Source: a virus
Taxonomy: Duplodnaviria > Caudoviricetes
Virus record (IMG/VR): IMGVR_UViG_3300046000_004988
Span: 1-62,356 of that record
Reading direction: 5' to 3' (one strand)
Length of the DNA: 62,356 nt
The translations under genes and the position numbers were made by a program. Every line of letters begins with the position of its first letter. Position 1 is the stretch's first letter. The notes beneath the pieces are model-generated. The model did not search any database. It was not told the origin of the DNA and saw nothing but the letters and a program-made list of their open reading frames with translations. Positions 4,399-62,204 of the stretch are shown here, one piece after another.

Positions 4399-4637
4399 GC
4401 CTCTCCTTTTTCGGGTCCGAGTTCCGACCCGATGATTTCATCATAAACAACATTGAACCGCTTTTTCAAATTCCTGGTCGATGCGGACTCGTGCATGCTG
4501 CTCGATGACGTTATTTTCCGTGCCGTTCTCAGGAGCAATTCCATGTTTTTCATGCGCCACTTGATGTGCATGATTCGTAGCGAGTAAACTCCACACGCTA
4601 TTAGTATAACCACCAGTGATTCAATTTGATTTTCCAT
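4395..4637 (-). CDS. Small membrane-anchored hypothetical protein
   Basis: N-terminal hydrophobic stretch; ATGA overlap with terL. Confidence 0.6.
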   Translation of the reverse strand: MENQIESLVVILIACGVYSLRIMHIKWRMKNMELLLRTARKITSSSSMHESASTRNLKKRFNVVYDEIIGSELGPEKGEA

Positions 4638-4639
4638 CT

Positions 4640-5224
4640 TTATTTTGTGGGTGTGACGTCTCGCTCTGTTATTTCCTGAGGTATGCCTTGAATGATTATC
4701 TTCTGAAGAAGCACCTCGATTGAGGTTGAAGCACTAGACTGAGACTCCTTGTCGAACCCTTGGATCTGTGATGAGATCTTCATGGCTTCAAGTGGACTCA
4801 TCTTCTTTGTAGTCTTCTTAACTGTGCCGAATGGTGTTGTCTCTGTTTTGTATTCAATGCACAGTGGGTCATACTCGTCGATCTCGATGATCGGTGTCCT
4901 CACTGCTCTAGCGCAGACTCCCAGGATCTCCTCTCGGCTCAATGCCGCAGATTCGATCCTCTCTTTTGAGAACTTTATTCGCAAGTCGTTCGTTGCCTTT
5001 ATTACCCACGGTTGATTCGCCTTCTTGAAGGCATGTGCCTCTGCTGTGGATCTCTCAACGTCATACGCCTTTATGTATGCATTGACCTGCGAGTCATTCA
5101 TCGCCAGATGGAAACAAAATGTGAAGTCTGCCATGGTGGCAAGTGCCAATGGGTCTTCTACTTTGTTGAGAACTACGTTCTGACGCTTTTTAGGTGTCGC
5201 TCGTTTCGGTTTCTTTGGTGACAT
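4640..5224 (-). CDS. terS: Terminase small subunit
   Basis: F...SQVNAYIKAY HTH-like motif and LSREEIL segment typical of TerS; located upstream of terL. Confidence 0.7.
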   Translation of the reverse strand: MSPKKPKRATPKKRQNVVLNKVEDPLALATMADFTFCFHLAMNDSQVNAYIKAYDVERSTAEAHAFKKANQPWVIKATNDLRIKFSKERIESAALSREEILGVCARAVRTPIIEIDEYDPLCIEYKTETTPFGTVKKTTKKMSPLEAMKISSQIQGFDKESQSSASTSIEVLLQKIIIQGIPQEITERDVTPTK

Positions 5225-5405
5225 ATTTCAGCTTCCTTCCTGGCCCATTGGTGACCTTCCTTGATGCGCCACACCGTAGCCTCGATGTCAGTCTTGCAGA
5301 CAGACCGCATGCATAACAGAGAGATGCCCCGACCTCTGATTGGTTGGGGCATCTCGTGCAAAGTCCTTTTGCTTTGCGATCAAGTCTTCGTTCGGTCTGG
5401 TTCAT
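5190..5405 (-). CDS. Small Cys-rich zinc-binding protein
   Basis: KAKGLCTRC...LCYAC (two CxxC). Confidence 0.55.
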   Translation of the reverse strand: MNQTERRLDRKAKGLCTRCPNQSEVGASLCYACGLSARLTSRLRCGASRKVTNGPGRKLKYVTKETETSDT

Positions 5406-5698
5406 GCAGATCCATTTGCTCGCGCCCAACGCATCAGGTTGCGGCGTTTGCGTTGATTGGTGGTGCGGCAGAGAGACCGGATGGTGATGTCATCGTTGCG
5501 ACGACCAATGCCAGTGAGGGCACGCTTCAGGGCTTCGCTTTGATGATCAAGGAGACCCTTGATTTTGTCCGTCGATGCACTTGGCTGATGGATTCGGCCA
5601 AGGAAGATTGCGGACAGTTTGCTGAGGATGTTTCGGAGTAGGTTCATGAGTTTGGTGATGTGTGGGCTTGACGATATTGGACGGATGGTTTTTGTCAA
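5402..5698 (-). CDS. Hypothetical basic protein
   Basis: Overlapping start/stop junctions with both neighbours. Confidence 0.45.
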   Translation of the reverse strand: MTKTIRPISSSPHITKLMNLLRNILSKLSAIFLGRIHQPSASTDKIKGLLDHQSEALKRALTGIGRRNDDITIRSLCRTTNQRKRRNLMRWARANGSA

Positions 5699-6027
5699 AC
5701 TTCTTTTCTGAGTGCCTCAATGGCTTGCTTGATTTGTTGGCGTTGAGCAACTGCTGCTTTGGATCTTCCTTTGATGGTCGACTTTTCGCTCCTCATTTTC
5801 GCCACCATCTCTTTGATTGATTTTCTCTTCCCATCAACCGCAACCCTGAGTTGCTCAACCTCATGGATTCGACTCACTCTTTCCAAGAATTTTCTCCTGG
5901 AGGACTCGTCTTGAAGATCTGCCGCGCATCCGGAAACCTTTGGCAGTTTTGGTTTACGCTTCGGGATGTGACCGAATAAGTCAAACGCGACTATGCTTGA
6001 TTCTGTTTGGATACTTTGCGTGCTCAT
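5695..6027 (-). CDS. Hypothetical coiled-coil protein
   Basis: 110-aa ORF packed in the operon. Confidence 0.55.
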   Translation of the reverse strand: MSTQSIQTESSIVAFDLFGHIPKRKPKLPKVSGCAADLQDESSRRKFLERVSRIHEVEQLRVAVDGKRKSIKEMVAKMRSEKSTIKGRSKAAVAQRQQIKQAIEALRKEV

Positions 6028-7783: not shown

Positions 7784-8803
7784 TCACTTCTTGAGCTTGG
7801 AGACGGTCTCCTTGCCTGGGGTGATTGTGATCGACCAGGAGGACTCGCCTTTGCCAATCTTGAACTCATAGGTCGCCTTCTTGGCACCGACACCATTGAC
7901 GATAGCGAAGTTGATTGCGTCAGTGATTGTGCTGTCGGCGGACGGTTCGGACGAAGAGATCCGGATGGCATCTTTGATGGACATCTTCTGGATGATGAGA
8001 GGCGCGAGTTTGATCTTCTCGGCTTTGGGAAGCTCGGTGAACATCAGCAACTCTTTGTGCTTCTCCGGACCAGCCAGAATGGAACCACGCTTGATCGCAG
8101 TGAGGATTCCAGAGTCCTCACCAAGATCCTTGGCGATAGACACCAAGGCTTCAGCGCGTTCGGCTTTGCGCTTCGATGCATCCTTTCCTGCTTTGTCGGC
8201 ATCACGGATGCGACGAGCCTCTTCGTATGCCGCATTGAGCGAGATCTCCTTACTCTCGACTTTGGCGGCGAGTTCAGGGTACTGGGCGATGAGTTGGCTT
8301 TTCTTGACGTTGTCGACAGAGGTTCCAGTGACCTTTGCCGCCTCTTCCCGTGCTGCATGAGAGGCACGCTTCTGTGGGGTCTCTGGGATGGTGGTGCCAT
8401 TGCCATTGCCTTTGTCTGGCTTCGCCTCTTCAGAGACGTTCGCCTTCAGCTTAGCGACGATTTCCTTGGTGATGCTGGCGGCGAGCAAACCGAGGTGACC
8501 CTCAGTTAGATTGCGGCGGGCGAGGTTTTCGCGCAGCACGAATGCGAGGAGGTCATCGCCATCAGATGGGTCAGAACCGAATTCGCGGAAAGGAATGCTC
8601 TCCTTGTTGATTCCAGCCTCGTTGCCAAGGATGAGACGATTGCGTCCATCAGCAACCTTGCCCCTGTAGAGGACGACGGGTTTTTTGATGCCATCACGCT
8701 GGATGCTATCAAGCGTGACCTTGCGTGCGTTGCCTTCCATGAGTGGAAGTTTGTCTGCGAACTCGTGCGCGACGAATCCGAATGGTAGTTTGGTGGTGCT
8801 CAT
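7784..8803 (-). CDS. ParB/Srx-like N-terminal domain protein with HTH
   Basis: SIQRDGIKKPVVLYRGKVADGRNR and ENLARRNLT motifs; AREEAAKVTGTSVDNVKK is HTH-like. Confidence 0.8.
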   Translation of the reverse strand: MSTTKLPFGFVAHEFADKLPLMEGNARKVTLDSIQRDGIKKPVVLYRGKVADGRNRLILGNEAGINKESIPFREFGSDPSDGDDLLAFVLRENLARRNLTEGHLGLLAASITKEIVAKLKANVSEEAKPDKGNGNGTTIPETPQKRASHAAREEAAKVTGTSVDNVKKSQLIAQYPELAAKVESKEISLNAAYEEARRIRDADKAGKDASKRKAERAEALVSIAKDLGEDSGILTAIKRGSILAGPEKHKELLMFTELPKAEKIKLAPLIIQKMSIKDAIRISSSEPSADSTITDAINFAIVNGVGAKKATYEFKIGKGESSWSITITPGKETVSKLKK

Positions 8804-8876: not shown

Positions 8877-9299
8877 TCAATTCTTTTTTGAGGAAACTAC
8901 TCTCCATCCATCTTTCGAGTCCTGGGCAAACCTGAATTCGATTTCTGGGAAATCGTGAATCGCACGCTTGAACGCAGTCACAGATCTTCCTTGAGATCCA
9001 AGTTTGAAACTGCCTTTGCACTCGACTGCCAGGACAACCTCAGAACCCTTCCAGACGATCCAGTCAGGTGTGTATTTTGTGCCATCCTTCAATCGCAGCG
9101 TGATCTCTTCATAACCAATTCTGTATCCAGATGATTCCTTGAATTCACACTGCAACACATGCCCATATCTCTCTTCGGTTTTATTCGCCGCTGATGGTTT
9201 CGGGAGACGGATTGGTGGTGGTGATGCGGGTCTGACATCAGACCCAGGTCTAATGCTTCCGTAACGCTTCTGGTATTCCTCTGATGACATCCTTTCCAT
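8877..9299 (-). CDS. PD-(D/E)xK nuclease (DUF1064-like)
   Basis: KYTPDWIV...AVECKG motif. Confidence 0.75.
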   Translation of the reverse strand: MERMSSEEYQKRYGSIRPGSDVRPASPPPIRLPKPSAANKTEERYGHVLQCEFKESSGYRIGYEEITLRLKDGTKYTPDWIVWKGSEVVLAVECKGSFKLGSQGRSVTAFKRAIHDFPEIEFRFAQDSKDGWRVVSSKKN

Positions 9300-11606: not shown

Positions 11607-12311
11607 TTATTCGATGTGCTTTACCACTCCGCGCTCATCTGGAACTCCCCAGGTGCGCTTGCGATTCTTGGCGAACTTATTTTCGACTTCCATCATGAGA
11701 TTGACTCCTGCACGCTCTGCGAGATTGAAGAGCAGAATGGCGCAGTCAGCAAGCTCTTCTCCATCGTTTGGGTTCTCGCGGACTTCCTGAACCTCATCGG
11801 CTAAGTGGTCGATCTTTGCAGATGTGGTCTGGTTAGGGAATGTCTCCTCAGACCACTGGGAAATGCGATGTTGTATCGTCGCTGCATTCTTTACGAGGGT
11901 GAGTTGACAGTTGAACAATTCTGATAGTCCTTTATAGGTTTTTCCGGCAGATTCTCTGCGCCATATCGCTGCCGATATTTGTAGGTCAATCCATGTTTTT
12001 GTTTTGAATCTACCAGTGTTATAGCATTCGATGCATATTGGAATATCACCAACTTTCCTGAGTGTTTGAGTTTCGCAGGAGACGCATTTGCATTTATCTG
12101 GGTCGGAACTCGGACCCGAATTTTGTTTTGAATCTAAGTGATTCTTTTCTATCCAATCAGCTAATCTTCCGGATGCGTAGCAATTAAAGCATGTTGTTAT
12201 TTCGCCATAATTGCCGAGATCTTTTGGGGTTCCGCAGCATTCGCAGTATGTTTTTTGCATTTGTTCTTGGTCCATGGCTTTAGTCTTCGCGGTAAACTTT
12301 TGCTTTGTCAA
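11607..12311 (-). CDS. Zn-ribbon plus MazG-like (DUF550-type) dNTP pyrophosphohydrolase
   Basis: WSEETFP...HLADEVQE...EELADCAIL...KNRKRTW; two N-terminal CxxC...CxxC repeats. Confidence 0.75.
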   Translation of the reverse strand: MTKQKFTAKTKAMDQEQMQKTYCECCGTPKDLGNYGEITTCFNCYASGRLADWIEKNHLDSKQNSGPSSDPDKCKCVSCETQTLRKVGDIPICIECYNTGRFKTKTWIDLQISAAIWRRESAGKTYKGLSELFNCQLTLVKNAATIQHRISQWSEETFPNQTTSAKIDHLADEVQEVRENPNDGEELADCAILLFNLAERAGVNLMMEVENKFAKNRKRTWGVPDERGVVKHIE

Positions 12312-13026
12312 TCTCGGCGGGCCAGTTGTTCATGAGGGTCACTGGTTCTCTCCTGAGATACTCACACTGGGTTTTTGTGTAATACCATTCGAGGATGTCG
12401 AGATCTTCATTGAGGTCTGACTGGTCGCAGTCGGCATAGGACATCGCCAGGATCTTGAGGGCAGTGAGTTCTTTCTTGGACCACTTGGTTGATGGTCGAC
12501 GATTGAACCACGAATGAATTCTTGAATGAAGTTCTTGAGAAACTGGATTCATCTTTGTCTTTGGTTCATCAATCTTTACATCCTCCGACTTGTCGGAGAT
12601 TGGTATCTCCTTATCTGGATTACCTTCATGGATTACCTTTGGGTGTCTGTCAGACAGGGGTGGGGTGTCTGTCAGACAGGGGTCCGGTTCCTGTGAGACA
12701 GGGGTGTCTGTCAGACAGGGGTTCCAGGATGACGGTGGAGTTAGGAAATAGACGTTGGATTTTGTGCCTCCTGTAGTCCTCCTAACCTCCATGAAATGAC
12801 GGTCCTCAAGCTCTTTGATTGCACGCCTCACCTGACTCTCTGAGATACCGCACACGGTCCCGATGCTTTGGATGCCAGGAAAGGCACTCCCTGTTCGATT
12901 GGCACGCCTTGCAATGTGGCAATACACCCTGAACGCATAAACGCTCAATCCTGCATCATCGAGTGATGAATGGACAAAGATGACATTCATCTCTGACTGA
13001 TCTTGGAATACTTTCTTCTCGCTCAT
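12280..13026 (-). CDS. Replication initiator with N-terminal HTH (lambda O-like)
   Basis: AFPGIQSIGTVCGISESQVRRAIKELE HTH, SNVYFL, internal iterons; located upstream of dnaB; start uncertain. Confidence 0.8.
   Translation of the reverse strand: MSEKKVFQDQSEMNVIFVHSSLDDAGLSVYAFRVYCHIARRANRTGSAFPGIQSIGTVCGISESQVRRAIKELEDRHFMEVRRTTGGTKSNVYFLTPPSSWNPCLTDTPVSQEPDPCLTDTPPLSDRHPKVIHEGNPDKEIPISDKSEDVKIDEPKTKMNPVSQELHSRIHSWFNRRPSTKWSKKELTALKILAMSYADCDQSDLNEDLDILEWYYTKTQCEYLRREPVTLMNNWPAEIDKAKVYRED
12641..12721. repeat. Iteron cluster / probable replication origin
   Basis: GGGTGTCTGTCAGACAGGGG at 12641, 12663 and 12702 plus a variant near 12690; each has the dyad TGTCTG-T-CAGACA. Confidence 0.8.
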
Positions 13027-13346
13027 TGGTCTTTTGGTTGAGTGTGTTGCAGTGCTCTCTGCGCTAGTTCTAGTTGAATCTTGAGAATGGCGACCTGACG
13101 AGTCTTTCTGGCCTTGAATGAGGTCCACGCTTCGTCACGAGTCGGGTGCGCTAAACGCTTCTTCGAGGTCTTGCTAACCCACTTCCGTTCACCATATCTT
13201 TCGACATGGTATCCGCACGGAGTCTCGCTGATGACCGTGTAAGTTTGGAGGCGAATGTCGACTCTGACACAAGTAACGGTCTCAAATTCGTCCAGTTCTC
13301 CGTATGGATGGTCAGTGTAGCGATAGAGGTGTGTTGGTGTGCTCAT
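13023..13346 (-). CDS. Hypothetical phage protein
   Basis: 107-aa ORF; VISETPCGY...KWVSK...AHPT. Confidence 0.7.
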   Translation of the reverse strand: MSTPTHLYRYTDHPYGELDEFETVTCVRVDIRLQTYTVISETPCGYHVERYGERKWVSKTSKKRLAHPTRDEAWTSFKARKTRQVAILKIQLELAQRALQHTQPKDQ

Positions 13347-17892: not shown

Positions 17893-17967
17893 TGGTATCC
17901 CGTGAGGGAATCGAACCCCCATCAGAGGGGTAGAATCCCTCTACTCTATCCATTAAGCTAACGGGAC
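17893..17967 (-). tRNA. tRNA-Arg(UCU)
   Basis: GTCCCGT/ACGGGAT acceptor, D-loop containing GGATA, anticodon stem GAGGG/CCCTC with loop ATTCTAC, TTCGA T-loop, encoded CCA. Confidence 0.88.
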
Positions 17968-19743: not shown

Positions 19744-19767
19744 TGGGTCGGATGTCGGACCCGTTTG

Positions 19768-24712: not shown

Positions 24713-24738
24713 AAGGGGGTCGGAAGTCCGACCCCCTT
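24713..24738. terminator. Hairpin after the capsid gene, built around a GGGTC-N8-GACCC site
   Basis: AAGGGGGTCGGA-AG-TCCGACCCCCTT. Confidence 0.45.
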
Positions 24739-27788: not shown

Positions 27789-28466
27789 TTATTTCATGTA
27801 ACTGCGGTACTCATCTCCTGCCCACGTCTTGCACATCCATGGTCTTGGGTGGCTTGCCCAACATACAATTCTTGTGCCCTCCCTGGAGGTTGCGTGGAGT
27901 GGGTGTGACGCAGGAACGTAGTGGGCTTTGATTCCTGGAATAAGGTCATCCAAGTAACGCCGATCAATGCCTAAATTAACCATCTCTGTCGCAGAAAAAT
28001 CCATGACTCCCCAGATTGTTTTATGATCGGCTGGTCTTTGGACGCTGCGCTCTTGATCGAAACATTCAGCCACTACTCGATGGTCTCCATTCCAGATGCA
28101 AACACCATCAGACCACTTTGGGCGGAGAAAGTCGTGAATTCCGTAAATTGCGTTGGGTTCGCACGACATTGCTAAATCAGTGAATGGTTTCAGCGAGTCG
28201 CAAATAAGTGTATCAAGTCCAACAAGTATTGTTGGACCACAGAATCTGTACGCCTCAAGAACTGACCACCATCCGGTCCACTTTGTCCTCATGGGAACGT
28301 GCCAGTCTTCTGATGGCGTATCGGTGATGCAGTAGAACTTGAATCGAGCGTCTCTATTGTGAGCGTAGAACTGTCGGCGCAAGCACTCGGCGTGCTTTAT
28401 GTTGTAGTCTCCGCCTGAGCGGCAGACGACGACGAACGATGGATCTGATGTGGCGAGGTCAAGCAT
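27789..28466 (-). CDS. Glycosyltransferase-like protein (GT-A fold)
   Basis: FYCITD, GWWSVLEAY, ILVGLDT, HPRPW motifs seen in phage GT8-like proteins. Confidence 0.65.
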   Translation of the reverse strand: MLDLATSDPSFVVVCRSGGDYNIKHAECLRRQFYAHNRDARFKFYCITDTPSEDWHVPMRTKWTGWWSVLEAYRFCGPTILVGLDTLICDSLKPFTDLAMSCEPNAIYGIHDFLRPKWSDGVCIWNGDHRVVAECFDQERSVQRPADHKTIWGVMDFSATEMVNLGIDRRYLDDLIPGIKAHYVPASHPLHATSREGTRIVCWASHPRPWMCKTWAGDEYRSYMK

Positions 28467-31494: not shown

Positions 31495-31542
31495 TGTCGT
31501 ATTGTGGGTGTGTTGTTATTGGGTCGGACTTCCGACCCGTGA

Positions 31543-34710: not shown

Positions 34711-34975
34711 GTGACCATTGGGTTACAATTTTGACTCCCGTAGTTCCGACATCGGCTTTGATTTCAATGTCTGCGGATGACCTTAGAACTAGCATTCCAA
34801 CGGATGATCCGGTTGGTATTGTGAGTTGATCATCAGGTGCTGTCCTGTCCGCTTTACGGATGAGAAGATCAGCGCCAGTGTCGTTTTTGATCGACACATG
34901 ATCCGCTTTGCGGGTCGGAAGTGCGACCCAATTTGTTGTTACCGAGACGTCGAATGCATCAGATCCTGATTTCAT
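34703..34975 (-). CDS. Small virion structural protein (putative)
   Basis: Beta-rich 90-aa ORF upstream of the tail fibre gene. Confidence 0.55.
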   Translation of the reverse strand: MKSGSDAFDVSVTTNWVALPTRKADHVSIKNDTGADLLIRKADRTAPDDQLTIPTGSSVGMLVLRSSADIEIKADVGTTGVKIVTQWSHE

Positions 34976-54142: not shown

Positions 54143-54147
54143 TCAGA

Positions 54148-54175
54148 AAGCTATGGTCCATTCCTTGGGTATCAA
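54148..54175 (-). promoter_or_regulatory. Putative leaderless late promoter of the giant gene
   Basis: TTGATA-N16-TAGCTT, 5 nt upstream of the ATG. Confidence 0.5.
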
Positions 54176-54260
54176 GCAGATTTCAGGCTAATATCCTGAT
54201 ATGGTATTGCGACACGAATCGCCCGAACGTGCGATGCATCGAACGCTTTGCGTCGATGAT

Positions 54261-54539
54261 CTATTTGTTCGGCTCACCAATCAGACGCCGCAGAAATCCG
54301 ACACCAAAAGCGCCGGGTATAGCCTCGCTGAATACATTATGCACAGCGATAGCTGGCTCATGAGTCGAGGTCTTTGCTTTAGCCCACGGGTTGCATTGTG
54401 GGCATGGCGTGTTCATAACGTCATCATCGGGTTCGGTTCCGGGGAGCATCCCACATCCGCCACAAGCCGAACAACGGCACTGCACCACAACGCCTATGGC
54501 GTTGCTGTCCATCGTGTTTTCAATCTCTGATTTCGCCAT
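54261..54539 (-). CDS. Cassette 1 ORF, CxxC zinc-binding hypothetical protein
   Basis: CSACGGCG...CPQC; start lies within the attC2 loop. Confidence 0.65.
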   Translation of the reverse strand: MAKSEIENTMDSNAIGVVVQCRCSACGGCGMLPGTEPDDDVMNTPCPQCNPWAKAKTSTHEPAIAVHNVFSEAIPGAFGVGFLRRLIGEPNK

Positions 54540-54553
54540 AGTCGTGTGTGAGT

Positions 54554-54805
54554 TTAGACGTTCGCCAGATATTCAGCGAGTGCTTGCCCGATCATCTTTC
54601 GGTCCTCCGCGCTCACTGGTTCCGTGATTTCCGAGAGTGCCACCGCGTGCAAGATCGGGCGTCCGTTGACGCTCAGAATCCATGCCGGGACGGTCACACC
54701 TTCGATGTTCGAGTGGAGATTCGCGCCGTGCCATTCCACGCGACCAACAGGCGAACAAGACGCTGGAGAGGAACCGCTCTTAACGGCTTTGTTTCGGAGT
54801 TTCAT
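54554..54805 (-). CDS. Cassette 2 ORF, hypothetical protein
   Basis: Start within the attC3 loop; stop within the attC2 R'-side spacer. Confidence 0.65.
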   Translation of the reverse strand: MKLRNKAVKSGSSPASCSPVGRVEWHGANLHSNIEGVTVPAWILSVNGRPILHAVALSEITEPVSAEDRKMIGQALAEYLANV

Positions 54806-55134
54806 GGTAGTTTGAAAGGTTTATTGTGTGGCGGAGTGCCGCTCCCAGAGCGGTCCCTCAGCTCAGCGTTAGCTGAAATCATTCGTTCCACTGCCGCCCA
54901 TGTCTCGGGAGTGTATCCAGGTGGAGGGTTGTCCACCGACCACCATGCCTCAATGTATGCTTTGCACTCAGCTTGATCCTCAGTCAGCGGAATGCCCGCC
55001 GACTCCAAGGCCTCGCAGAGCGCAAGGCCACAGCTGACAAGTCGTGTGAGGCAACGCCGCTCAGCTAACAAGGCGCTGGTGCCGACCATCTGGGGCGGGC
55101 TGTCGGACTTCGGTGTTTGGCTGGTTTCGATCAT
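54802..55134 (-). CDS. Cassette 3 ORF, hypothetical protein
   Basis: Start MIETSQ within the attC4 loop; ATGA overlaps at both ends. Confidence 0.65.
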   Translation of the reverse strand: MIETSQTPKSDSPPQMVGTSALLAERRCLTRLVSCGLALCEALESAGIPLTEDQAECKAYIEAWWSVDNPPPGYTPETWAAVERMISANAELRDRSGSGTPPHNKPFKLP

Positions 55135-55796
55135 GATTTTTGGACGGTTGAGTTTTCTCCGGTTTCGGCCCCAGAGGTCGGCACAGCTTTTGCGTTCTGT
55201 GTCTGCGCGATGAACGCCTCCACTTCTGCGATGGCGTCCTCGTCTTCGTGCTTCATCCATAGGTAGTCACTGCCCCATTGAGCTTTGCGGTCCTCGTATG
55301 CAGCCCACAGCACAGAGAGCATCTTGTCTCTCGCTGCCAGTTGGCGAGCGATGTCGCTTTTCGCGTGTAGGGACTCCGATGTCATCGCGCAGATGTGGCG
55401 GATGTAGTGCTCTCCGAGGCTTTCGGAGTCTTGGGCCGGATACACAGAGGCATCGCATGCAGGCAACGGCTCGGAGGTGGTCTGTTGTGTTTTCATAGTT
55501 ATTTGCTCGCGTTCCTGATCCGAGACGTTCGGCAGTTCAACAACGTAGTCATTCCAAGTCAAAAGACCTGGATCAACTTTGATTTTATCAAAGATTCTTC
55601 CACCGATAGCATAAGCATCGTCGTGAGATTCAGCTTCGATGAAATGAGATTCAAACGAGAGTGACCCTGGTCCAAGTTGCTTGAACGATTCAGGCAGAGG
55701 TGCCCCTGTCACTTTCTTGATGATCGAGTTGACCAGGTTGTGGTCCTCCAGGGTGACTTGGTTGACTCTTCCAATGATGTAGAGATACTTTTTCAT
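55131..55796 (-). CDS. Fusion of upstream gene (MKKYLY) with cassette 4 ORF (internal start MKTQQ at 55496)
   Basis: Reads through attC5 without a stop; the C-terminal part contains HICAMTSESLHAKSDIA. Confidence 0.6.
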   Translation of the reverse strand: MKKYLYIIGRVNQVTLEDHNLVNSIIKKVTGAPLPESFKQLGPGSLSFESHFIEAESHDDAYAIGGRIFDKIKVDPGLLTWNDYVVELPNVSDQEREQITMKTQQTTSEPLPACDASVYPAQDSESLGEHYIRHICAMTSESLHAKSDIARQLAARDKMLSVLWAAYEDRKAQWGSDYLWMKHEDEDAIAEVEAFIAQTQNAKAVPTSGAETGENSTVQKS

Positions 55797-55800
55797 GGCG

Positions 55801-56079
55801 TTATTTCGGGACGACTTCGAGAGATGTGAGTAGGACTGCTGCGGCAGCATTTGAATCCTTCGCCCTTTTGGTTAGGAGTGTGGCTGAGTTGATAACGTTG
55901 CGAAGAGCGTCACGCAGGCTGAACGCTTTGCCGTGCGTGCCACAGAAGATGATCCTGGCTGGTGACGAGTGGTCACCGTATCCTGCTGTCTTGCAGCCGC
56001 ATGGATACACCGTCTGGGTGCGTCCATCATGCTGGACTGTGTGCGGGTCGTTTGCCCATGTTGTGGATTGATCGCTCAT
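55801..56079 (-). CDS. Hypothetical protein
   Basis: 92-aa ORF with YPCGC...FCGTH. Confidence 0.6.
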   Translation of the reverse strand: MSDQSTTWANDPHTVQHDGRTQTVYPCGCKTAGYGDHSSPARIIFCGTHGKAFSLRDALRNVINSATLLTKRAKDSNAAAAVLLTSLEVVPK

Positions 56080-56085
56080 GATGAT

Positions 56086-56421
56086 TTAGATGATTGCTGA
56101 GGTTCCGTAGATGTGCTGGACCAAGACGCATTCCTGGTTGAGCAGAAGTTTGATGATGTTGATGATGTCAGTGACCTTGTGCTCGATATTGGCAATGGGT
56201 GATGTGATTGCAACTTCGAGCGTGATGCTTGCCTCCTCGACGAGTTCATCAGTGCCTGTGTTGACCCATCCTCCGTGACCTGAAGTCTCAGTGTATCCGC
56301 CAAAGATTTTGGCGACCTCGCGACGAATGACCTGGATGGACTTCTCAGGAGTTGGTGCCGTGATGGATTTGCCGTCCTTGTCTTTCTCGATGCCGAATGT
56401 GAATTTGATGCTTGAGATCAT
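56086..56421 (-). CDS. SAM-lyase/DUF3574-like protein (putative anti-restriction)
   Basis: FGGYT...GGW...EEAS...LNQECVLV pattern. Confidence 0.5.
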   Translation of the reverse strand: MISSIKFTFGIEKDKDGKSITAPTPEKSIQVIRREVAKIFGGYTETSGHGGWVNTGTDELVEEASITLEVAITSPIANIEHKVTDIINIIKLLLNQECVLVQHIYGTSAII

Positions 56422-56483
56422 GATAGTAGTTGTTTGTGTTATTGAGTTGGATTTGCGCGTTACAGTCGCGCCCCTGGTTTTGA

Positions 56484-56633
56484 TTAGCTATGACGGTTGA
56501 TTTCGACCCGTGCATCTGGGTAGCAATCCTGAAACATTTTAGCCGTGGCGATCGCTCCATTAAAGTCGCGGTCATCGCTATTGAGGATAAATGATGGGGC
56601 GTTTGAAGGGCTGATTGTGAATGAGTATTTCAT
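56484..56633 (-). CDS. 49-aa hypothetical protein
   Basis: Manual translation MKYSFTISPSNAPSF...YPDARVEINRHS. Confidence 0.5.
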   Translation of the reverse strand: MKYSFTISPSNAPSFILNSDDRDFNGAIATAKMFQDCYPDARVEINRHS

Positions 56634-56662
56634 ATTCGTGTGGCGTGTGTGGTGGCTGAAAA

Positions 56663-56908
56663 TTAGTGACGTGGGTTTGGGAGGATGATTTCGAGCGATG
56701 TTGGGTTGTGACCCGAATCTGCAAGATTTTTTATTTCGCGTGCCAGGATCTTTTCGAGTGCCTCAGCCAGGTCTTCATCGACTTCGATGAATTCAATTTG
56801 GTTTGCCTGGAGTGTGTAACGCTCTGCGCCCTTCCAGATGCCATTGGCACCCTTGGTATAGGTAGTCTGGCGATTAGCTTCGTCGATTGGGAATGTGATG
56901 CTGGTCAT
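56663..56908 (-). CDS. Early hypothetical protein
   Basis: ATG at the end of the conserved promoter-leader repeat. Confidence 0.65.
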   Translation of the reverse strand: MTSITFPIDEANRQTTYTKGANGIWKGAERYTLQANQIEFIEVDEDLAEALEKILAREIKNLADSGHNPTSLEIILPNPRH

Positions 56909-56995
56909 ATTGGTATTTGGTCCGCACAGGGGTTTTGTCTGGCGTGAGGAGAGTATGGGGTCGGACTTCCGACCCGTCAAATAGTTTTTGTCAGA
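56903..56995 (-). promoter_or_regulatory. Early promoter-operator-leader unit, copy 1
   Basis: AAAAACTA-TTGACG-N17(palindrome)-CATACT ... GGACCAAATACCAATATG; identical to 58962-59053 except for one indel. Confidence 0.8.
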
Positions 56996-57393
56996 TTCGC
57001 TCTTTTCTTTTTGATCGTTCCCCTTGGGTCTGGGTTGATGCCAAACAATTTCCTGAGCTTCGCCACCGTGAGGCAGAGTCGCACCTTGTTCTTTGGGTCC
57101 AGGATCTCGATTGCTGAACTGATCTGGAAATCCTGGAGCGTTGGCTTTTTGAATGACCTTGGTCGTATCCGTGGCTTGAGGTCTTTCGCTTGCTGGTCCT
57201 CACTCCATTCGCCCATGACGAGGATGAGTGACGTGAGCGGTATCCAGGCGCATCTGCCCTCGCCTGTCACCTGTGCCTTGTATGACTCCCTGTTGAGTCC
57301 GGTGATGGTTCCTCGTGCTCCACCCCATCCGTGCCCGTTGACGGCAACACGGCATCCGAGAGAAAAGTCTTGGTCGTTGGTCCTGATGATCAT
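56977..57393 (-). CDS. KOW/SH3-like small protein with basic tail
   Basis: FSLGCRVAVNGHGW...RGTI...AWIPLTSL; paralog of 61267-61446. Confidence 0.6.
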   Translation of the reverse strand: MIIRTNDQDFSLGCRVAVNGHGWGGARGTITGLNRESYKAQVTGEGRCAWIPLTSLILVMGEWSEDQQAKDLKPRIRPRSFKKPTLQDFQISSAIEILDPKNKVRLCLTVAKLRKLFGINPDPRGTIKKKRANLTKTI

Positions 57394-57412
57394 TGGTTAT
57401 TCCTTCCTGGTT

Positions 57413-57670
57413 TTATCTAAATGCACGAGCCAGTTTCCAGCAGTCTTCTATCCTCGTGTCTGGATTGATGCGGTTCCTAAATGTTGAGCCTGGACTGATG
57501 TGGTAGGCAATGGCTGGATCTTCGCGATCAACTCCGAACTCGACTTCGATTCCGCACTCTGAAATTGCGTCGTTGAGATCTTCAATTTCTTCATCGGTGA
57601 GTTCTATGATTCTCTTTTGAGACTGGTCCATGTTGAGTGCTGCTGTTTGATTGATTGAGTCCGGTTTCAA
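57413..57670 (-). CDS. Hypothetical protein
   Basis: 85-aa ORF; start uncertain. Confidence 0.5.
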   Translation of the reverse strand: MKPDSINQTAALNMDQSQKRIIELTDEEIEDLNDAISECGIEVEFGVDREDPAIAYHISPGSTFRNRINPDTRIEDCWKLARAFR

Positions 57671-57749
57671 TTGTGCCCCGAAACCGGAAGAGGGTCGATG
57701 GTGTGGTGTTGGTTATTCTACTTCATGGTGGTGTCCTCCTGGTGGTGAA

Positions 57750-57824
57750 TGGGGTCAGAGGAGGGGATCGAACCCTCTATCTTCAGGATATGAGCCTGAC
57801 GACTTGCCACTTGTCCTCTCTGAC
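57750..57824 (-). tRNA. tRNA with CAU anticodon (Met/fMet-like, atypical)
   Basis: GTCAGAG/CTCTGAC acceptor, TCAGG-CTCATAT-CCTGA anticodon arm, GAGGG-TTCGATC-CCCTC T-arm, encoded CCA. Confidence 0.8.
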
Positions 57825-57832
57825 GAAATTGG

Positions 57833-58063
57833 TTAAGCGAAAGCTGGAGTGCGTCCAGATGCCTTCAGGAGATCGTTAGCCTTGGCAATGCGTGCCTTGG
57901 CGCTCTCGATGAATTTGGCGCGACTGGTGGCAGCACGGGATGCGCTCCGCTTTGCCTCTGGCGTGGATGCTGTATCTGCGCCGTATGTGCGGCGGAATGC
58001 AGCCTCCTGCTGGTCGCGACGTTTCTGATGGGCTTCGCCCTGGACTCCGAGTGGTGTGTTCAT
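57833..58063 (-). CDS. Small basic protein
   Basis: Probable start MNTPLG after an A/C-rich leader. Confidence 0.5.
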   Translation of the reverse strand: MNTPLGVQGEAHQKRRDQQEAAFRRTYGADTASTPEAKRSASRAATSRAKFIESAKARIAKANDLLKASGRTPAFA

Positions 58064-58143
58064 GTTCGTATGGGTGTTGTGGGTGTTTGTTTGGCTTTGC
58101 CAATTGGCAGAGAATGTGTGGTTTGTTTCGGGTTTTGCAAGTG

Positions 58144-58701
58144 CTACCACTCGCCCTGTTCAGCGTCGATGATCTCCTGGGAGGTTTCATTGTGCCAGCA
58201 ACCGATGATTTTGACGTCCTCGATTTTCTTCGTGATGCACTCAAGTGGTGCGCGATCACTGTCCGGATTCAGCAACTTTTCCTTTTCCGCTGGGGTGAGG
58301 TATTCCGAGACCTGCTCCTTGATGGAGGTGCCAAGGATTGCTGACTGAGGGACACCGTCCTTCAGGATCTCGTAACGGGTTGTGCAGTGCTGCGACTGGA
58401 CCGGATAGAGGCGGACGTATTCTGCGCCCTTGTGGGTGATTATCCAGGGAAACACTGCCCATTCACCCCATGGGAGCGATTGGACCTCGCCGCGCTCACC
58501 TGAAGCGATTGCAGCCAGGACTGATGCCTTGTGGGCATAGTCGATTCCGGTGCGGAAGATGCCCTCGACGTGCTTGATGACTTGGACGTCTTTGTGTGCG
58601 GCGGCGAGTTTGACGTTGGTTTTGTATTCGACACGGACGAATTGACCTTTGCAGGTCTTGACGGTGTCGATGAGGGACTGGGCGGATGGGCTGATTTGCA
58701 T
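58144..58701 (-). CDS. Conserved-looking phage hypothetical protein
   Basis: GIDY...LPWGEW...IITHKG.EYVRLYP; biased codon usage. Confidence 0.75.
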   Translation of the reverse strand: MQISPSAQSLIDTVKTCKGQFVRVEYKTNVKLAAAHKDVQVIKHVEGIFRTGIDYAHKASVLAAIASGERGEVQSLPWGEWAVFPWIITHKGAEYVRLYPVQSQHCTTRYEILKDGVPQSAILGTSIKEQVSEYLTPAEKEKLLNPDSDRAPLECITKKIEDVKIIGCWHNETSQEIIDAEQGEW

Positions 58702-58724
58702 ATTGGTTTTGGTTTTGGGTTGTG

Positions 58725-58967
58725 TTACTTTGAGGACAAAGTTGCGACTGGTTGACTTCCACCATGGGGAGCCGAGAAGCAGCAGTCATTCCGGTCAGAG
58801 TTCCAGGAGCACCAAGTGAAGCGGCGACCTTGGAAGTTGAGGACTTTATTAGTGAACCTTTTCACATCACTCCATCCGTTTGGGCACTGGACCGTGAGGA
58901 AGTCTTTACCCACATCTGGACGCTCGTGGAGTGTCACTGAGATTTCGTTGGTGATTGTAGCGGTCAT
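58725..58967 (-). CDS. Early hypothetical protein
   Basis: ATG at the end of promoter-leader repeat copy 2. Confidence 0.7.
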   Translation of the reverse strand: MTATITNEISVTLHERPDVGKDFLTVQCPNGWSDVKRFTNKVLNFQGRRFTWCSWNSDRNDCCFSAPHGGSQPVATLSSK

Positions 58968-59053
58968 ATTGGTATTTGGTCCGCACAGGGGTTTGTCTGG
59001 CGTGAGGAGAGTATGGGGTCGGACTTCCGACCCGTCAAATAGTTTTTGTCAGA
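58962..59053 (-). promoter_or_regulatory. Early promoter-operator-leader unit, copy 2
   Basis: Near-identical to 56903-56995. Confidence 0.8.
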
Positions 59054-59269
59054 ATTTACATTCTTCCTCATCCATCAGCCCCATCAGCCCTGTGTCGACA
59101 CGTCTTCCAGCCATGAGTCGTATCTTGATTCCGCACTGCTTGTTGTGCTCCTTTCTGATGTCCCTGTCGGTTCCTGAAGTACCGACTCTTGTGTTCATCA
59201 TATTCAGTCCACGACGCTTCAATGCGTCATCCAGTTTTGTTTGCTTCTTTGCCATGGTGTTTGTTATTC

Positions 59270-59659
59270 CTAGTTCTGGTCCCACATGGCATCCCATGCG
59301 TCTGGTTCGTTGTTCTCCTCTGGTGGTTCTCCAAAGAAGTTGTCTTCATCTGGATTGTAATTGCCCTCTTCTTCAGGTAGAAGGAAGTCGATACGCCTTC
59401 CCTCATACTCTGCTTTGATGCAGAATCCGAATCCCGACAATTTGGTTATACCGATTGCCTGGAGAGTTTGGAACAGACCGTCATAGTCGATGGTCTCGAT
59501 CTGCCTGATGCGGTAGAGGATGATGTCGCAATCTTTTCGTGGTCCGTCTTTGTAAAGCAAACCTCCTGTTAGACCAACGTGGCAACCATGCATTGGTGCT
59601 ACGTCTTCAATCTTTCTACAAAGCTCAATGGCTTCGCTTGTTGTCCATGTGTGAATCAT
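59270..59659 (-). CDS. Minimal Pol-beta-type nucleotidyltransferase-like protein
   Basis: VGLTGGLL...KDCDIIL...RIDFL (GG, DxD and third D). Confidence 0.6.
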   Translation of the reverse strand: MIHTWTTSEAIELCRKIEDVAPMHGCHVGLTGGLLYKDGPRKDCDIILYRIRQIETIDYDGLFQTLQAIGITKLSGFGFCIKAEYEGRRIDFLLPEEEGNYNPDEDNFFGEPPEENNEPDAWDAMWDQN

Positions 59660-59663
59660 ATTG

Positions 59664-60005
59664 CTAGAAGGATAACAGTCCGAGTTTTCTTGCTGCGTTT
59701 GGGTTTGCGTGAATCCAGTTGTGGCAGTCGCGGCAGCAGTATTTGTAGACCAGGATGTTCTCCTTGGATCTTCCGTGTGTGTGGTGACGATCAAATGAGT
59801 CTTTGGTGCCATAAGCCTTGCATGAGAAACATGTTTGCTGACGTGCGTCCTGCTCGACTTGGGCAAAGTATTTCTTTTCCCACTCAGACTTCTTTGCGCT
59901 CCTGGCTTTGATTGGGGCTCGTTTCTTTTTCTCGATGAGTCCAGCCTTGGCTTTTTCTACGTATGTGAGACGCTTCGATGGTTTTGCTTGGAATTCAGTA
60001 ATCAT
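59664..60005 (-). CDS. HNH/NinG-like zinc-binding nuclease
   Basis: CFSC...DRHH...GR...CRDCHNWIH. Confidence 0.75.
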   Translation of the reverse strand: MITEFQAKPSKRLTYVEKAKAGLIEKKKRAPIKARSAKKSEWEKKYFAQVEQDARQQTCFSCKAYGTKDSFDRHHTHGRSKENILVYKYCCRDCHNWIHANPNAARKLGLLSF

Positions 60006-60249
60006 GTGGACCCTCCTTGATGCTCCTGAATTCACTGATCTCTTTTCTCATTGAGTCGATGGATGCTTTGGTGATGAGTTCATCCACACTCGGAGGTGGT
60101 GGTGGCGAGAAGTGGAGGTGTGATTGCATGTCGTCATACAGACCGATCTCGATGCGTCCTGCGGCATTCCGGCATCGCTCAATGAGGTCATCGGCATCAC
60201 GCAGTTTACTCTTGAGCGCATCAACGTAGTTCTGTGGGTAATAGATCAT
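59995..60249 (-). CDS. Hypothetical protein
   Basis: Probable start MIYYPQ. Confidence 0.5.
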   Translation of the reverse strand: MIYYPQNYVDALKSKLRDADDLIERCRNAAGRIEIGLYDDMQSHLHFSPPPPPSVDELITKASIDSMRKEISEFRSIKEGPHDY

Positions 60250-60250
60250 G

Positions 60251-60559
60251 TTACCAGAGTTTGAATGTTCGGCCAAACGCCTCAGCCTTTTGACTGGCTT
60301 TGGCGTGAATGTCCACCTTGCTGAGGTGGTGCGTAAACACATGAGGACCACCAAGGACGACAATTCTGATGTTCTCGCGATACTGCGCCCAAGTGTAGTC
60401 TGGGATTGATGTCTCTGCCTGATACATGTCATTGAGGTCAGAGAAGTAATCTGGAATCCTGGCGAGTCTTCCATGCAATTGACCGTGCCAACTGATTTTG
60501 TTGATGTTTTTGTATCCTTTGAACTCGGCAATCTTGACCCGTTTGTTTGAGGTGTTCAT
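60251..60559 (-). CDS. Hypothetical phage protein
   Basis: IAEFKG...IPDYFSDLNDM...A.ASQKAEAF. Confidence 0.65.
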   Translation of the reverse strand: MNTSNKRVKIAEFKGYKNINKISWHGQLHGRLARIPDYFSDLNDMYQAETSIPDYTWAQYRENIRIVVLGGPHVFTHHLSKVDIHAKASQKAEAFGRTFKLW

Positions 60560-60756
60560 GACTTCTTTTTCTTAGGCTTGATTGGAGTTGCGACGAATAC
60601 GGCCTGGACCACTTCGATCTTCAGGATGCTGGCGTTTGGCGGAAGATCCTTGAAGTGCTCAAGGACTGAGAGTTGGATCTTTCTGATGATCTCTTTGGCC
60701 TTTTTGCTTGCTGGTGTTTGGATCACCATTCGGAATTGTTCTGGAGGTAGTTTCAT
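60556..60756 (-). CDS. Hypothetical protein
   Basis: ATGA-coupled to its neighbours. Confidence 0.55.
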   Translation of the reverse strand: MKLPPEQFRMVIQTPASKKAKEIIRKIQLSVLEHFKDLPPNASILKIEVVQAVFVATPIKPKKKKS

Positions 60757-60977
60757 GAGAATGAGAATGCGATGAAGATGATGATGAGGAGGATCACAGC
60801 AAGAGCGATTGCTGAGAATATGTCTTTGGTTAGGTTGCTCCCAATGTCTTCAATTTGCTCTGGCGCAGACTTGACGAAGTTTCTGTAGTGCGATTGGCGA
60901 TAGGTGCGCTTGAATGGCGGGTTCACTGTGGCGTCATAGACGTGGATCAGAACGCTTTTTCTGTCGTAGGATTTCAT
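60753..60977 (-). CDS. C-terminally membrane-anchored protein
   Basis: IFSAIALAVILLIIIFIAF. Confidence 0.55.
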   Translation of the reverse strand: MKSYDRKSVLIHVYDATVNPPFKRTYRQSHYRNFVKSAPEQIEDIGSNLTKDIFSAIALAVILLIIIFIAFSFS

Positions 60978-61261
60978 TCGATTGATGAGTTTGGTTGTTC
61001 GGCTGGTTGAAGTGAATTGACGTCTGTGATGCACAGACCTGTGGCTCGTGGATATGATAGCAGAACCGTGTGCCTGTCGCTCCTGATCTCAACGAGTTTG
61101 ACGAGGTCACCAGGGAAGATCCTGATGGTTGCCAGGATGTCGTGCGGGTAATCAATGTCACGCCCCTGGCATGACGTGTTGATGACTGGCAGACGCTCCC
61201 TGTCGCGTGTGATTGGCTGGAACGTGTAGTGCAGACCTGGTGTGAGTTCTTCAGCTTTCAT
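60974..61261 (-). CDS. Hypothetical protein
   Basis: 95-aa ORF packed in the operon. Confidence 0.55.
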   Translation of the reverse strand: MKAEELTPGLHYTFQPITRDRERLPVINTSCQGRDIDYPHDILATIRIFPGDLVKLVEIRSDRHTVLLSYPRATGLCITDVNSLQPAEQPNSSIE

Positions 61262-61266
61262 GATGG

Positions 61267-61446
61267 TTATACTAGCGTGAGCGATGTTGCTGGAATCCAG
61301 GCTGGGCTATTGCCGCCATTCCTGAGAACAAGAGCGCGGAAGCTCGACTGGTCGAGGTGCTGGATGATGCCCCTTGCATCGCACCATCCGTGCCCGCTAA
61401 CACGGACCTCGTCTCCGACTTTGAATGTTTGACCGTTTGTTTTCAT
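61267..61446 (-). CDS. 59-aa KOW/SH3-like protein
   Basis: Manual translation MKTNGQTFKVGDEVRVSGHGWCDARGII...AWIPATSLTLV. Confidence 0.65.
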   Translation of the reverse strand: MKTNGQTFKVGDEVRVSGHGWCDARGIIQHLDQSSFRALVLRNGGNSPAWIPATSLTLV

Positions 61447-61712
61447 GCTGCGTATTTGGAATAAAGTTTTTCGACTGTGGCGTTGATCTTCGTCTGGTTG
61501 CCCAACCGTGTCAATGCACGCAAATATCCGGCAGTCTTGCAGTAGATCTTGCTCTCCGCATGAATGTAAATCGTATCACGGTGGCGGGCGCTGTGGAGAA
61601 CAATGCCCTTCTTCCCAATGTGGAATGAGCAGTCCCTGGATTGAGACTTCGGTTGGAGTTGACGAGCGGATGCTCGATTATTGATGCTGGTGATGACTTC
61701 AAGGCAATACAT
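61443..61712 (-). CDS. Hypothetical protein
   Basis: Probable start MYCLEV after an A/C-rich leader. Confidence 0.55.
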   Translation of the reverse strand: MYCLEVITSINNRASARQLQPKSQSRDCSFHIGKKGIVLHSARHRDTIYIHAESKIYCKTAGYLRALTRLGNQTKINATVEKLYSKYAA

Positions 61713-61755
61713 ATTGGTTTTTTGTTTTGGGTTTGGATGAATTGAGATTAAAGTC

Positions 61756-62124
61756 CTAACTACAGCAAGAGCAACATGGGGCATCCTCGCAGCGACCACG
61801 CTTGTTTTGATACCACTCAGCGCCGGAAGAGAAGCGTGCGTAATTGGACTGGTATTCTGGCTTTTTCGATACTGCCTGGACCTTGGCTTCACAGGAGTCG
61901 CACCGGACTGGCGTGGCTGCACCGTATGGGCGGAACTTGCCATTCGGGTCTCCGCACTCCCAGCAGGCTGCGCGGACGTCCTGTGGACTCTCTGGAGCAG
62001 GGATTCCAGCGCATTTGAGGTGTTGGGCACCGGATGACTTGCTCCATGCGATGAGTTCACCTTTCGCGATTGGCTCAGAGCAGCACTTGCACTTTCCTGG
62101 GTATTTGGATTGGATGGTCTTCAT
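61756..62124 (-). CDS. Cys-rich early protein
   Basis: SKYPGKCKCC.EPIAKG, CWEC, GRCEDAPCCSCC; ATG at the end of promoter-leader copy 3. Confidence 0.75.
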   Translation of the reverse strand: MKTIQSKYPGKCKCCSEPIAKGELIAWSKSSGAQHLKCAGIPAPESPQDVRAACWECGDPNGKFRPYGAATPVRCDSCEAKVQAVSKKPEYQSNYARFSSGAEWYQNKRGRCEDAPCCSCCS

Positions 62125-62204
62125 GTTGGTATTTGGTCCGCTCAGTTGTTTTGCTGGCGTGAGATGACTATTGGGTCGGATGTCGGACCCGTCAAATAGT
62201 TTTT
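62122..62204 (-). promoter_or_regulatory. Early promoter-operator-leader unit, copy 3 (diverged)
   Basis: AAAAACTA-TTGACG-palindrome-AATAGT...CTCACGCCAG...GCGGACCAAATACCAACATG. Confidence 0.7.

Follow-up and report, generated by a model that had tools for sequence, protein, structure and literature searches.

The 62,356-bp window analyzed here is a whole IMG/VR virus record (IMGVR_UViG_3300046000_004988) of a freshwater phage, with a 127-bp direct terminal repeat, and it carries sixteen exact copies of an 18-bp palindrome, GGGTC-N8-GACCC, dispersed over the entire genome with a spacing that is too even for chance. The palindrome is conserved in relatives of the virus at places where the surrounding sequence changes, three of its copies lie exactly between the −35 and −10 hexamers of sigma-70-like early promoters, and the genome encodes an orphan protein with a ParB fold and a helix-turn-helix (HTH). 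From sequence comparison, the palindromes may tentatively be regarded as loading and operator sites of this ParB/KorB-like protein (gene at 7784–8803), which would act genome-wide. The even, actively maintained spacing is the unusual part of the feature.

Each of the 16 start positions given in a preliminary description of this DNA is an exact match to GGGTC-N8-GACCC, while only 0.04 copies are expected from 100 dinucleotide shuffles (the largest count in any shuffle being 1), which rules out a chance origin. If one mismatch is allowed, a single extra place appears (43310; 2.06 expected by chance), and hence the motif is sharply defined. Variants with two mismatches (1 versus 3.7 expected) and three mismatches (18 versus 31.9 expected) are at or below expectation, indicating that sites are either complete or absent. 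Two relatives serve for comparison: the IMG/VR genome G001, which was found via its portal, a 546-aa protein, the ParB-like protein, and TerL, and the metagenome contig L034, of which 21 kb was examined. The copies and the largest open reading frame (ORF) that hosts some of them are located as follows.

4413–4430: copy 1, in the TerS–TerL gap, 15 nt upstream of the TerL start and within a doubtful 80-aa ORF; counterparts at the homologous place in G001 (43699) and L034 (14319).
9228–9245: copy 2, in a 140-aa ORF (8877–9299); the aligned G001 codons are without a site.
12100–12117: copy 3, in a 234-aa ORF (11607–12311), ~165 nt downstream of the initiator gene.
19745–19762: copy 4, intergenic, directly after a 998-aa tail-fibre-like gene; its G001 counterpart (28157) is at the same place, within a TTGACA/TATGAT promoter.
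24717–24734: copy 5, intergenic, past the conserved 546-aa gene.
27430–27447: copy 6, in a 392-aa ORF (26563–27741), aligned codon for codon to the G001 site 20327.
31521–31538: copy 7, intergenic, upstream of the endolysin gene (30931–31494).
34912–34929: copy 8, in a 90-aa ORF (34703–34975), just past the portal region.
37337–54142, minus strand: 5601-aa giant ORF, which hosts five copies (9 to 13).
40039–40056: copy 9, in the giant ORF, in the alignment column of the G001 site 7587 (residues VRGKT versus VGTQT).
45129–45146: copy 10, in the giant ORF, where it encodes MAGPMSDP; the G001 codons aligned to it encode MAAPQSEL, without a site.
48509–48526: copy 11, in the giant ORF.
51534–51551: copy 12, in the giant ORF.
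53997–54014: copy 13, 128 nt into the giant ORF; the G001 site 57962 is within ~3 codons of the aligned place.
56958–56975: copy 14, spacer of early promoter P3 (56952–56980, minus strand; TTGACG-17-CATACT).
59016–59033: copy 15, spacer of early promoter P2 (59010–59038, minus strand; TTGACG-17-CATACT).
62173–62190: copy 16, spacer of early promoter P1 (62167–62195, minus strand; TTGACG-17-AATAGT), adjoining the terminal repeat.

The extended motif, YR-GGTC-B-GA-NN-TC-V-GACC-YR, is a dyad of 16–20 bp. Its 32 half-sites in the window are GGTCGGA (18), GGTCCGA (7), GGTCTGA (3), and four single variants, a tally that bears out the inner consensus proposed earlier; lineages differ in the outer base (G versus A) and in the preferred base 5 (G versus C). 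Well-supported ORFs hold nine copies, five of them in the giant ORF, and five copies are clearly intergenic, so that the earlier division into ten coding and six intergenic copies was about right except for two doubtful cases, 4413 and 56958, the latter being a promoter into which just the initial codons of a TTG-start ORF extend. Altogether, 5–7 copies are non-coding, though 94% of the genome is ORF, and the coding copies are read in all three frames, which rules out a peptide repeat. Isolated half-sites are scarcer than in a first-order, not codon-aware, shuffle (11 versus 27.5 ± 5.6 in the window; 18 versus 30.5 ± 4.8 in G001), which lends weak support to selection against stray sites. K-mer scans of the window revealed no over-represented motif beyond the palindrome and the iterons described below.

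Comparison with the relatives indicates that it is the site itself that is maintained. G001 (63,983 bp) is syntenic with the window, with identities of 55% for the portal, 65% for TerL, and 50% for the ParB-like protein, and it bears GGTC-N-GA-NN-TC-N-GACC 17 times, 16 of them exact and one with a single mismatch; L034 bears five exact copies and one single-mismatch copy in 21 kb. L034 and G001 are 80% identical in DNA, and a G001 site lies opposite five of the six L034 sites. Within these five pairs, all specified bases are identical (60/60), while 8 of the 20 free bases differ; the chance of 60/60 at 80% identity is 0.8^60, ~1.5e-6. The sites shared by the window and G001 are those of the three early promoters, the one ahead of TerL, the one that follows the tail-fibre-like gene, one close to the giant-gene start, and two at coding positions with differing amino acids. 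At one of the latter (copy 9) the site is kept despite changed residues, and at the other (copy 6) both genomes share a deviant base, a T-to-C change in the right arm. Thus, in the conservation check set beforehand, the motif proved to be retained by relatives in spite of changes in the neighbouring sequence and even in the amino acids encoded, and the earlier reading of the palindrome as a genome-wide dyad signal at the nucleic-acid level is supported.

About half of the sites in the window and G001 have no site at the homologous place in the other genome, where a decayed remnant is often found instead. For copy 8, the G001 counterpart is ~50 codons off, in the neighbouring gene, which is a case of site turnover. 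The number of sites per region is nevertheless kept, with five copies in each giant gene. Such turnover with kept numbers points to selection on the site sequence and on the presence of a site per stretch, not on fixed positions.

On the circular map, the gaps between copies range from 2.06 to 7.65 kb and average 3.89 kb, and their coefficient of variation is 0.35. When sites were placed at random 100,000 times, the frequency of so low a coefficient was 4e-5, and that of so large a minimum gap was likewise 4e-5. For G001, the coefficient is 0.33, with a frequency of 2e-5 in random placements. In the window, the smallest distance between copies is 2058 bp, and a search at up to 3 mismatches showed no clustering of degenerate copies. 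The gaps described earlier, 2.06–5.13 kb and one of 7.65 kb, are as measured, and the comparison with random placement suggested at that time yields a regular arrangement (P ~4e-5 in the window, 2e-5 in G001).

The position of copies 14–16 suggests what some of the sites may do. In all three, the coding strand reads TTGACG, the palindrome as the 17-bp spacer, and CATACT or AATAGT, followed by a conserved leader. TTGAC[AG] abuts a site three times in the window and five times in G001, always on the coding strand. The five TTGACA-abutted copies of G001 are followed by TAxxxT-like hexamers; three of them are early, one is past the tail-fibre-like gene, and one is directly upstream of the ParB-like gene. 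L034 retains the latter promoter with its site, which places it directly upstream of the ParB-like gene in two of the three genomes (G001 and L034). Since a protein sitting on a promoter spacer of optimal length should exclude RNA polymerase, the copies in promoters look like operators, which would switch off early transcription and, in the relatives, also serve autoregulation.

The regions around the three early promoters (56900–57000, 58960–59060, and 62110–62200, minus strand) have in common an A-rich upstream stretch and a leader with CACGCCAG and GCGGACCAAATAC, and P2 and P3 are near-identical across ~90 bp. The G001 promoters have a similar leader, ahead of start codons without a Shine-Dalgarno sequence.

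Whether the palindrome is recognized as a duplex or as a folded strand can be judged from variation among the copies. The outer arms are invariant, while bases 5 and 12 are complementary to each other in just 8 of the 16 copies in the window and 9 of the 17 in G001. Of the 66 half-sites of both genomes, 61 fit GGTC-N-GA, and in these position 5 is G, C, or T, never A; the central dinucleotide is free in the window and occurs in both orientations in G001 (8 versus 8). Half-site identity is therefore kept rather than pairing, which argues for a symmetric protein dimer on duplex DNA and not for a folding structure; this is the signature of a putative duplex protein-binding dyad site.

It is highly improbable that the element works as a folded single strand, either as an RNA hairpin (in processing, stability, termination, or antitermination) or as a DNA hairpin or cruciform, e.g., like N4-type promoters, which in this variant would serve a virion RNA polymerase concealed within the giant protein. 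One strand does carry all genes, several intergenic copies closely follow stop codons, and perfect copies are predicted to fold at −12 to −16 kcal/mol; in addition, a giant virion-type protein and three early sites near the genome end bring to mind phage N4, in which early hairpin promoters near the genome end are found along with a giant virion protein. However, half of the copies bear a stem mismatch, with predicted stabilities from −4.5 to −16.1 kcal/mol, sequence rather than pairing is conserved with no compensatory changes seen, and the early sites lie inside canonical −35/−10 promoters. No copy is followed by a T-run, and none of the 16 terminator-like matches in 44000–62356 coincides with a palindrome, so that the copies do not qualify as intrinsic terminators; nor does any Rfam family match at the palindrome sites. 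The giant protein matches only a methyltransferase, a lysozyme-like segment, and DUF3293, and no DNA-binding or RNA-polymerase signature and no PDB relative were found for it, the polymerase test being a crude one. The earlier suggestion that a domain of this virion protein might be the binder is likewise not sustained by these matches.

Two further observations concern the giant gene. Its protein contains seven copies of the peptide (Q)PMA[AG]P between residues 2426 and 4850, which could be module boundaries or processing sites. One of these in the window and two in G001 have been turned into palindrome sites (MAGPxSDP), and the MA[AG]P coding context, with its 7 occurrences, seems to be a seed of sites. 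The G001 record is cut inside this gene, with an ORF that runs from 57827 off the end of the record and an ORF, open at the first base and ending at 10263, that do not join in frame, which indicates that a few bases are missing or that the join is inexact.

Among the products of the window, the best candidate for binding the dyad is the following.

7784–8803, minus strand: 339-aa ParB-fold protein with an HTH and a C-terminal dimerization domain, as judged from an AF2 model, Foldseek, and a family profile.

This protein has no Pfam match, and ParB_N is matched by only 2 of 61 family members, while 6660 homologues are found in the library. The family profile (61 members) matches Spo0J (E 3.4e-10), Noc (3e-9), and Caulobacter ParB (2.3e-7), with the stretches LDGRNR and NLxRRHL placed opposite GERRxRA and ENLQRE (Box I–III-like motifs). 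The HTH stretch is aligned to the HTH region of Spo0J; this alignment is weak alone (i-E 0.69), and the fold matches cover both domains. The AF2 model has a pLDDT of 94, and the 11 best Foldseek rows are all ParB-family chains with a probability of 1.00, the best PDB matches being pNOB8 ParB, Spo0J, Caulobacter ParB, KorB, and Noc. A homodimer is modelled with an ipSAE of 0.57 (0.13 for the best control) through interface residues 287–333, with at least 97% of contacts in common between runs and a partner pLDDT of at least 79. Of 30 proteins solved as pairs, 20 attain this mark, compared with 1 of 23 solved as single chains; as ParB dimers have already been solved, the score reflects likeness rather than binding. 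The predicted architecture is thus that of a ParB N-domain, an HTH, and a C-terminal dimer, and the ParB fold and HTH attributed to this gene in the preliminary description are confirmed by the model and the profile.

Protein family scans with Pfam and/or PHROGs covered 58 of the 78 candidate ORFs. Among the scanned ORFs, no integrase, CI-like repressor, ParA, DNA polymerase, or RNA polymerase was recognized; the lack of a CI-like repressor had been remarked on before. With no match to a ParA-type partner among these ORFs, the gene is not part of a recognizable ParABS system.

If the ParB-like protein is indeed the binder, the following course of events may be envisaged. Host sigma-70 RNA polymerase would start at the three early promoters beside the genome end; ParB-like dimers, once made, would occupy the palindromes in the −35/−10 spacers and shut these promoters off, and in the relatives they would shut off the promoter of their own gene as well. 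All ~16 sites would be entry points at which the protein, like KorB, ParB, and Noc, is loaded as a nucleotide-gated clamp, and each site would have to cover no more than ~1.9 kb on either side (the mean half-gap), so that the whole chromosome might become coated. The even spacing kept despite turnover would then be the footprint of a limited spreading range, with no stretch left uncovered. This fuller proposal, i.e., an array of ~16 evenly spaced clamp sites that is tuned to the sliding range, allows the chromosome to be coated soon after early transcription, doubles as early-promoter operators, and provides a virus-wide “self-marking” for protection, organization, or packaging, is rather doubtful.

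Several points weigh against assigning the sites to the ParB-like protein. In the window, its gene has no site at its own promoter; the closest one is located within another gene, 425 bp upstream. Box II reads DGRNR (G53, R54, and R56 are invariant in 11 close homologues) and not GERR, which makes nucleotide binding uncertain; the ParB fold as such is able to bind CTP, ATP, or GTP, according to the available part of a study in which orphan ParB-fold proteins on phages are described as common and unexplained (PMC12704722). L160, distantly related by its TerL, encodes a ParB-like protein of the window family (E 6e-51), and no convincing repeated palindrome was found in its 10.8 kb, a length that gives the comparison low power. 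A genome-coating clamp looks like a device with no demonstrated benefit in an apparently lytic phage. The remaining points concern the replication initiator, the second recognizable sequence-specific HTH protein of the genome, which was absent from the candidates of the preliminary description and is considered next together with its iterons.

12280–13128, minus strand: 282-aa O-like replication initiator (Pfam HTH_36, E 1.4e-12; PHROG replication-initiation families).
12641–12722: iteron cluster in the linker-coding part of the initiator gene, with three exact copies of a 13-bp palindrome and one variant in a ~20-bp unit.

The iterons are absent elsewhere in the window genome and are followed by two GAAGGTAATCCA repeats; the region 12641–12722 is the probable replication origin. 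It is unlikely, but worth weighing, that the O-like (HTH_36) initiator binds the dispersed palindromes too, with one form on the origin iterons and dimers on inverted repeats that share a part of the iteron sequence, as is the case for plasmid Rep proteins, whose dimers bind inverted-repeat operators. The sites would then be early-promoter operators and dispersed titration, secondary-origin, or helicase-loading sites. A palindrome is located in the initiator-gene linker of both G001 and L034, ~70 bp past the iterons, where the window has a decayed copy, with an intact one (copy 3) ~165 nt past the gene. The window iteron half-site TGTCTGA shares 6 of 7 bases with the dispersed variant GGTCTGA, and at the iteron place G001 and L034 bear a different dyad repeat with arms GGTCA/TGACC and a 5-bp spacer.

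A further argument for the initiator comes from unrelated viruses. An identical 18-bp palindrome is present in six high-GC IMG/VR viruses (L006, L008, L010, L013, L015, and L017) and in a Streptomyces contig, L113. There it occurs in clusters of 2–4 copies, 21–51 bp apart, with additional degenerate copies, in a conserved gene of 410–529 aa; the linker is read as G-R-x-S-D-P repeats with the Gly codon GGT, and the proteins end in ...APF. Dispersed copies and a ParB-like homologue of the window family were found in none of the five high-GC virus records searched for them. Among the Atlas look-alikes of the gene, HTH_36 is present in 19% of members (score 0.94) and in 76% (score 0.91). The clusters are a predicted lambda-like origin inside an initiator gene: lambda O dimers bind ~19-bp dyad iterons inside the O gene, and iterons of this type are dyads read by a winged-helix initiator dimer. 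An ~18-bp dyad fits this pattern, the window has such a cluster of its own at 12641–12722, and the high-GC viruses use the very same palindrome in this way, so that an initiator-type winged helix may read exactly this palindrome.

Against the initiator is, first of all, that distinct iterons are already there and have changed between the window and G001 while the palindrome has not; the 16 sites are single and dispersed and differ in sequence from the iterons of the window, and dispersed single sites every 3.8 kb are unprecedented for this type of initiator. The high-GC gene has no Pfam match and no hhalign similarity to the window initiator (probability 0.06%) or to the ParB-like family. Its protein model is poor (pLDDT 57) and gives no significant fold match, with weak top rows of winged-helix proteins that include plasmid initiators (E 0.7–4), and the match of its palindrome could be a coincidence, the scan having selected for identity. 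Finally, the ParB-like HTH protein would be left without a candidate site. As the initiator has iterons of its own, the economical assignment is that of the iterons to the initiator and of the dispersed palindrome to the ParB-like protein.

A third candidate for the binder is a host protein (a global regulator or a nucleoid protein) or a small phage protein that was not recognized, which is distinctly improbable. The 20 of 78 candidate ORFs outside the family scans leave room for the latter, most early proteins have no family match, and the differences between lineages in the outer base (G versus A) and base 5 (G versus C) could track different hosts. Nevertheless, scanning of bacterial genome contigs revealed single copies scattered across many phyla, with no genome standing out among the matches listed; no relative of the phage was found in these contigs either. 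The scarcity of isolated half-sites fits a factor to which the phage has adapted, whether it is the host's or the phage's.

Outside the two relatives, the array has few parallels. Scanning IMG/VR for the motif yielded 14 stretches, none of which pointed to a further genome with dispersed copies, and a scan for the promoter-plus-site pattern gave two further contigs, each with one different-looking copy. Among the known systems, Noc has many dispersed sites on one replicon, and Noc/NBS and ParB/parS resemble the present case in the 16-bp dyad and in the domain order of ParB N-domain, HTH, and C-terminal dimer. They differ in that Box II of the phage protein is DGRNR, the replicon is a virus, and no membrane-targeting or ParA-interaction role can be inferred. 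The stoperators of Cluster A mycobacteriophages are one repressor site in many copies across the phage genome, including places away from promoters; they are asymmetric 13-bp sites, oriented with transcription and bound by the immunity repressor of a temperate phage. The palindromes of the window are symmetric, and neither a repressor nor an integrase was recognized among the scanned ORFs, so that the stoperator-like reading raised at first is a poor formal match.

The closest likeness is to plasmid RK2, where, as far as the available text goes, twelve palindromic OB sites are distributed across a replicon of ~60 kb and conserved in sequence and position in a distant relative (PMC13768133), and KorB, a clamp gated by CTP, reaches promoters up to 1.5 kb away by sliding (PMC11790492). 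In both cases, a ParB-family HTH protein is accompanied by about a dozen palindromes over ~60 kb, some at promoters and others far from them. The differences are that no ParA/IncC partner or KorA-like protein was identified in the phage, that its site is 16–20 bp long versus 13 bp for OB, that sites lie within the −35/−10 spacer, and that more than half of the sites are in coding sequence. The phage spacing is statistically even, while the accessible part of the RK2 source does not mention regularity in the spacing of OB.

Cluster O mycobacteriophages (Corndog) have, in the portion of the source available, more than 30 invariant 17-bp palindromes with a free centre over ~70 kb, both between and inside genes; a few are near promoters, their function is unexplained, and the genome encodes a ParB-like protein, gp90 (PMC4351075). 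The N-domain and HTH of Corndog gp90 can be aligned with the ParB-like family of the window (hhalign probability 85%, E 6.8e-6). The Cluster O palindromes differ in having 7-bp arms with a 3-bp spacer, another sequence, host, and phage type, and no established binder; their density is twice as high, with a concentration in one operon, and the source, as far as available, does not report even spacing. Literature searches (supplements aside) gave no description of evenly spaced palindromes paired with a phage ParB-like protein.

The sites might also be points of nicking, cutting, or recombination, similar to the fixed nicks of T5-like phages or to serine recombinase crossovers, with either the ParB-like domain, in the role of a nuclease, or a phage endonuclease (17974–18585 or 8877–9299) as the enzyme; this is very unlikely. 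The sites are sharply defined, their central dinucleotide is free, the phage encodes an endonuclease VII/HNH-like protein and a weakly matching AHJR-like protein, and the available part of the Cluster O study describes indels flanked by repeats (PMC4351075). No recombinase was found in the ORFs scanned, symmetric cuts would yield 16 genome pieces, and the exact placement in promoter spacers would be left unexplained. Moreover, strains carry cassette replacements in the early region, and the joints listed, which come from contigs only, are not at sites.

These strains are represented by contigs of four runs, ~3% diverged, which were compared over 42400–62356 and show 637 differences. Loose contig ends beside three sites look like partial alignments from other palindrome copies and not like rearrangements. 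The early segments 54244–55526, 56480–56640, and 61262–61443 are replaced in strains by unrelated sequence of similar length (1169, 250, and 193 letters), which points to cassette exchange among early genes.

As for the genome as a whole, its G+C content is 51%, with a marked A-richness on the minus strand, which is home to essentially all long ORFs. Along this strand, the first ~8 kb is taken up by small early genes, for most of which a family match is absent, followed by the 5601-aa ORF, an SU10-type portal, and a structural and lysis block. The next block is devoted to recombination and replication and includes an SbcC-like ATPase, a UvrD-like helicase, the O-like initiator, DnaB, the ParB-like protein, and a ResIII/SNF2 helicase; TerS and TerL are at the end of the map. 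GenBank phages gave no match to the window DNA (megablast) or to the portal (tblastn), and only six weak matches to the ParB-like protein.

A tRNA-Cys gene (49785–49857, minus strand) is found inside the uninterrupted 5601-aa ORF (Rfam, 48.6 bits; ARAGORN too); the giant gene of G001 is without it, and strain variants bear a 354-letter replacement and several indels beside it (49582–49772). Other tRNA genes are those for tRNA-Arg (17893–17967) and tRNA-Met (57750–57824). Two glycosyltransferase-like genes are present in the structural block (27789–29686, minus strand; Glyco_transf_8, E 7.9e-8; PHROG 1962), and glycosyltransferases are similarly placed in Cluster O phages, as far as the accessible text shows (PMC4351075).

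Some phage genomes are already known to contain dispersed palindromes, with no explanation given for them, and the role of phage orphan ParB-fold proteins is likewise unexplained. The present case combines a sharp site, an even spacing kept through turnover, an operator context, and few candidate binders, and a direct test of a genome-wide DNA-marking or silencing mechanism in a virus thus requires only an oligonucleotide and two purified proteins. Should the ParB-like protein turn out to be the binder, a spacing set by the sliding range of a clamp could be examined in a natural system. If true, this would be a self-marking system of a kind undescribed for phages, and it might explain the palindromes of Cluster O as well.

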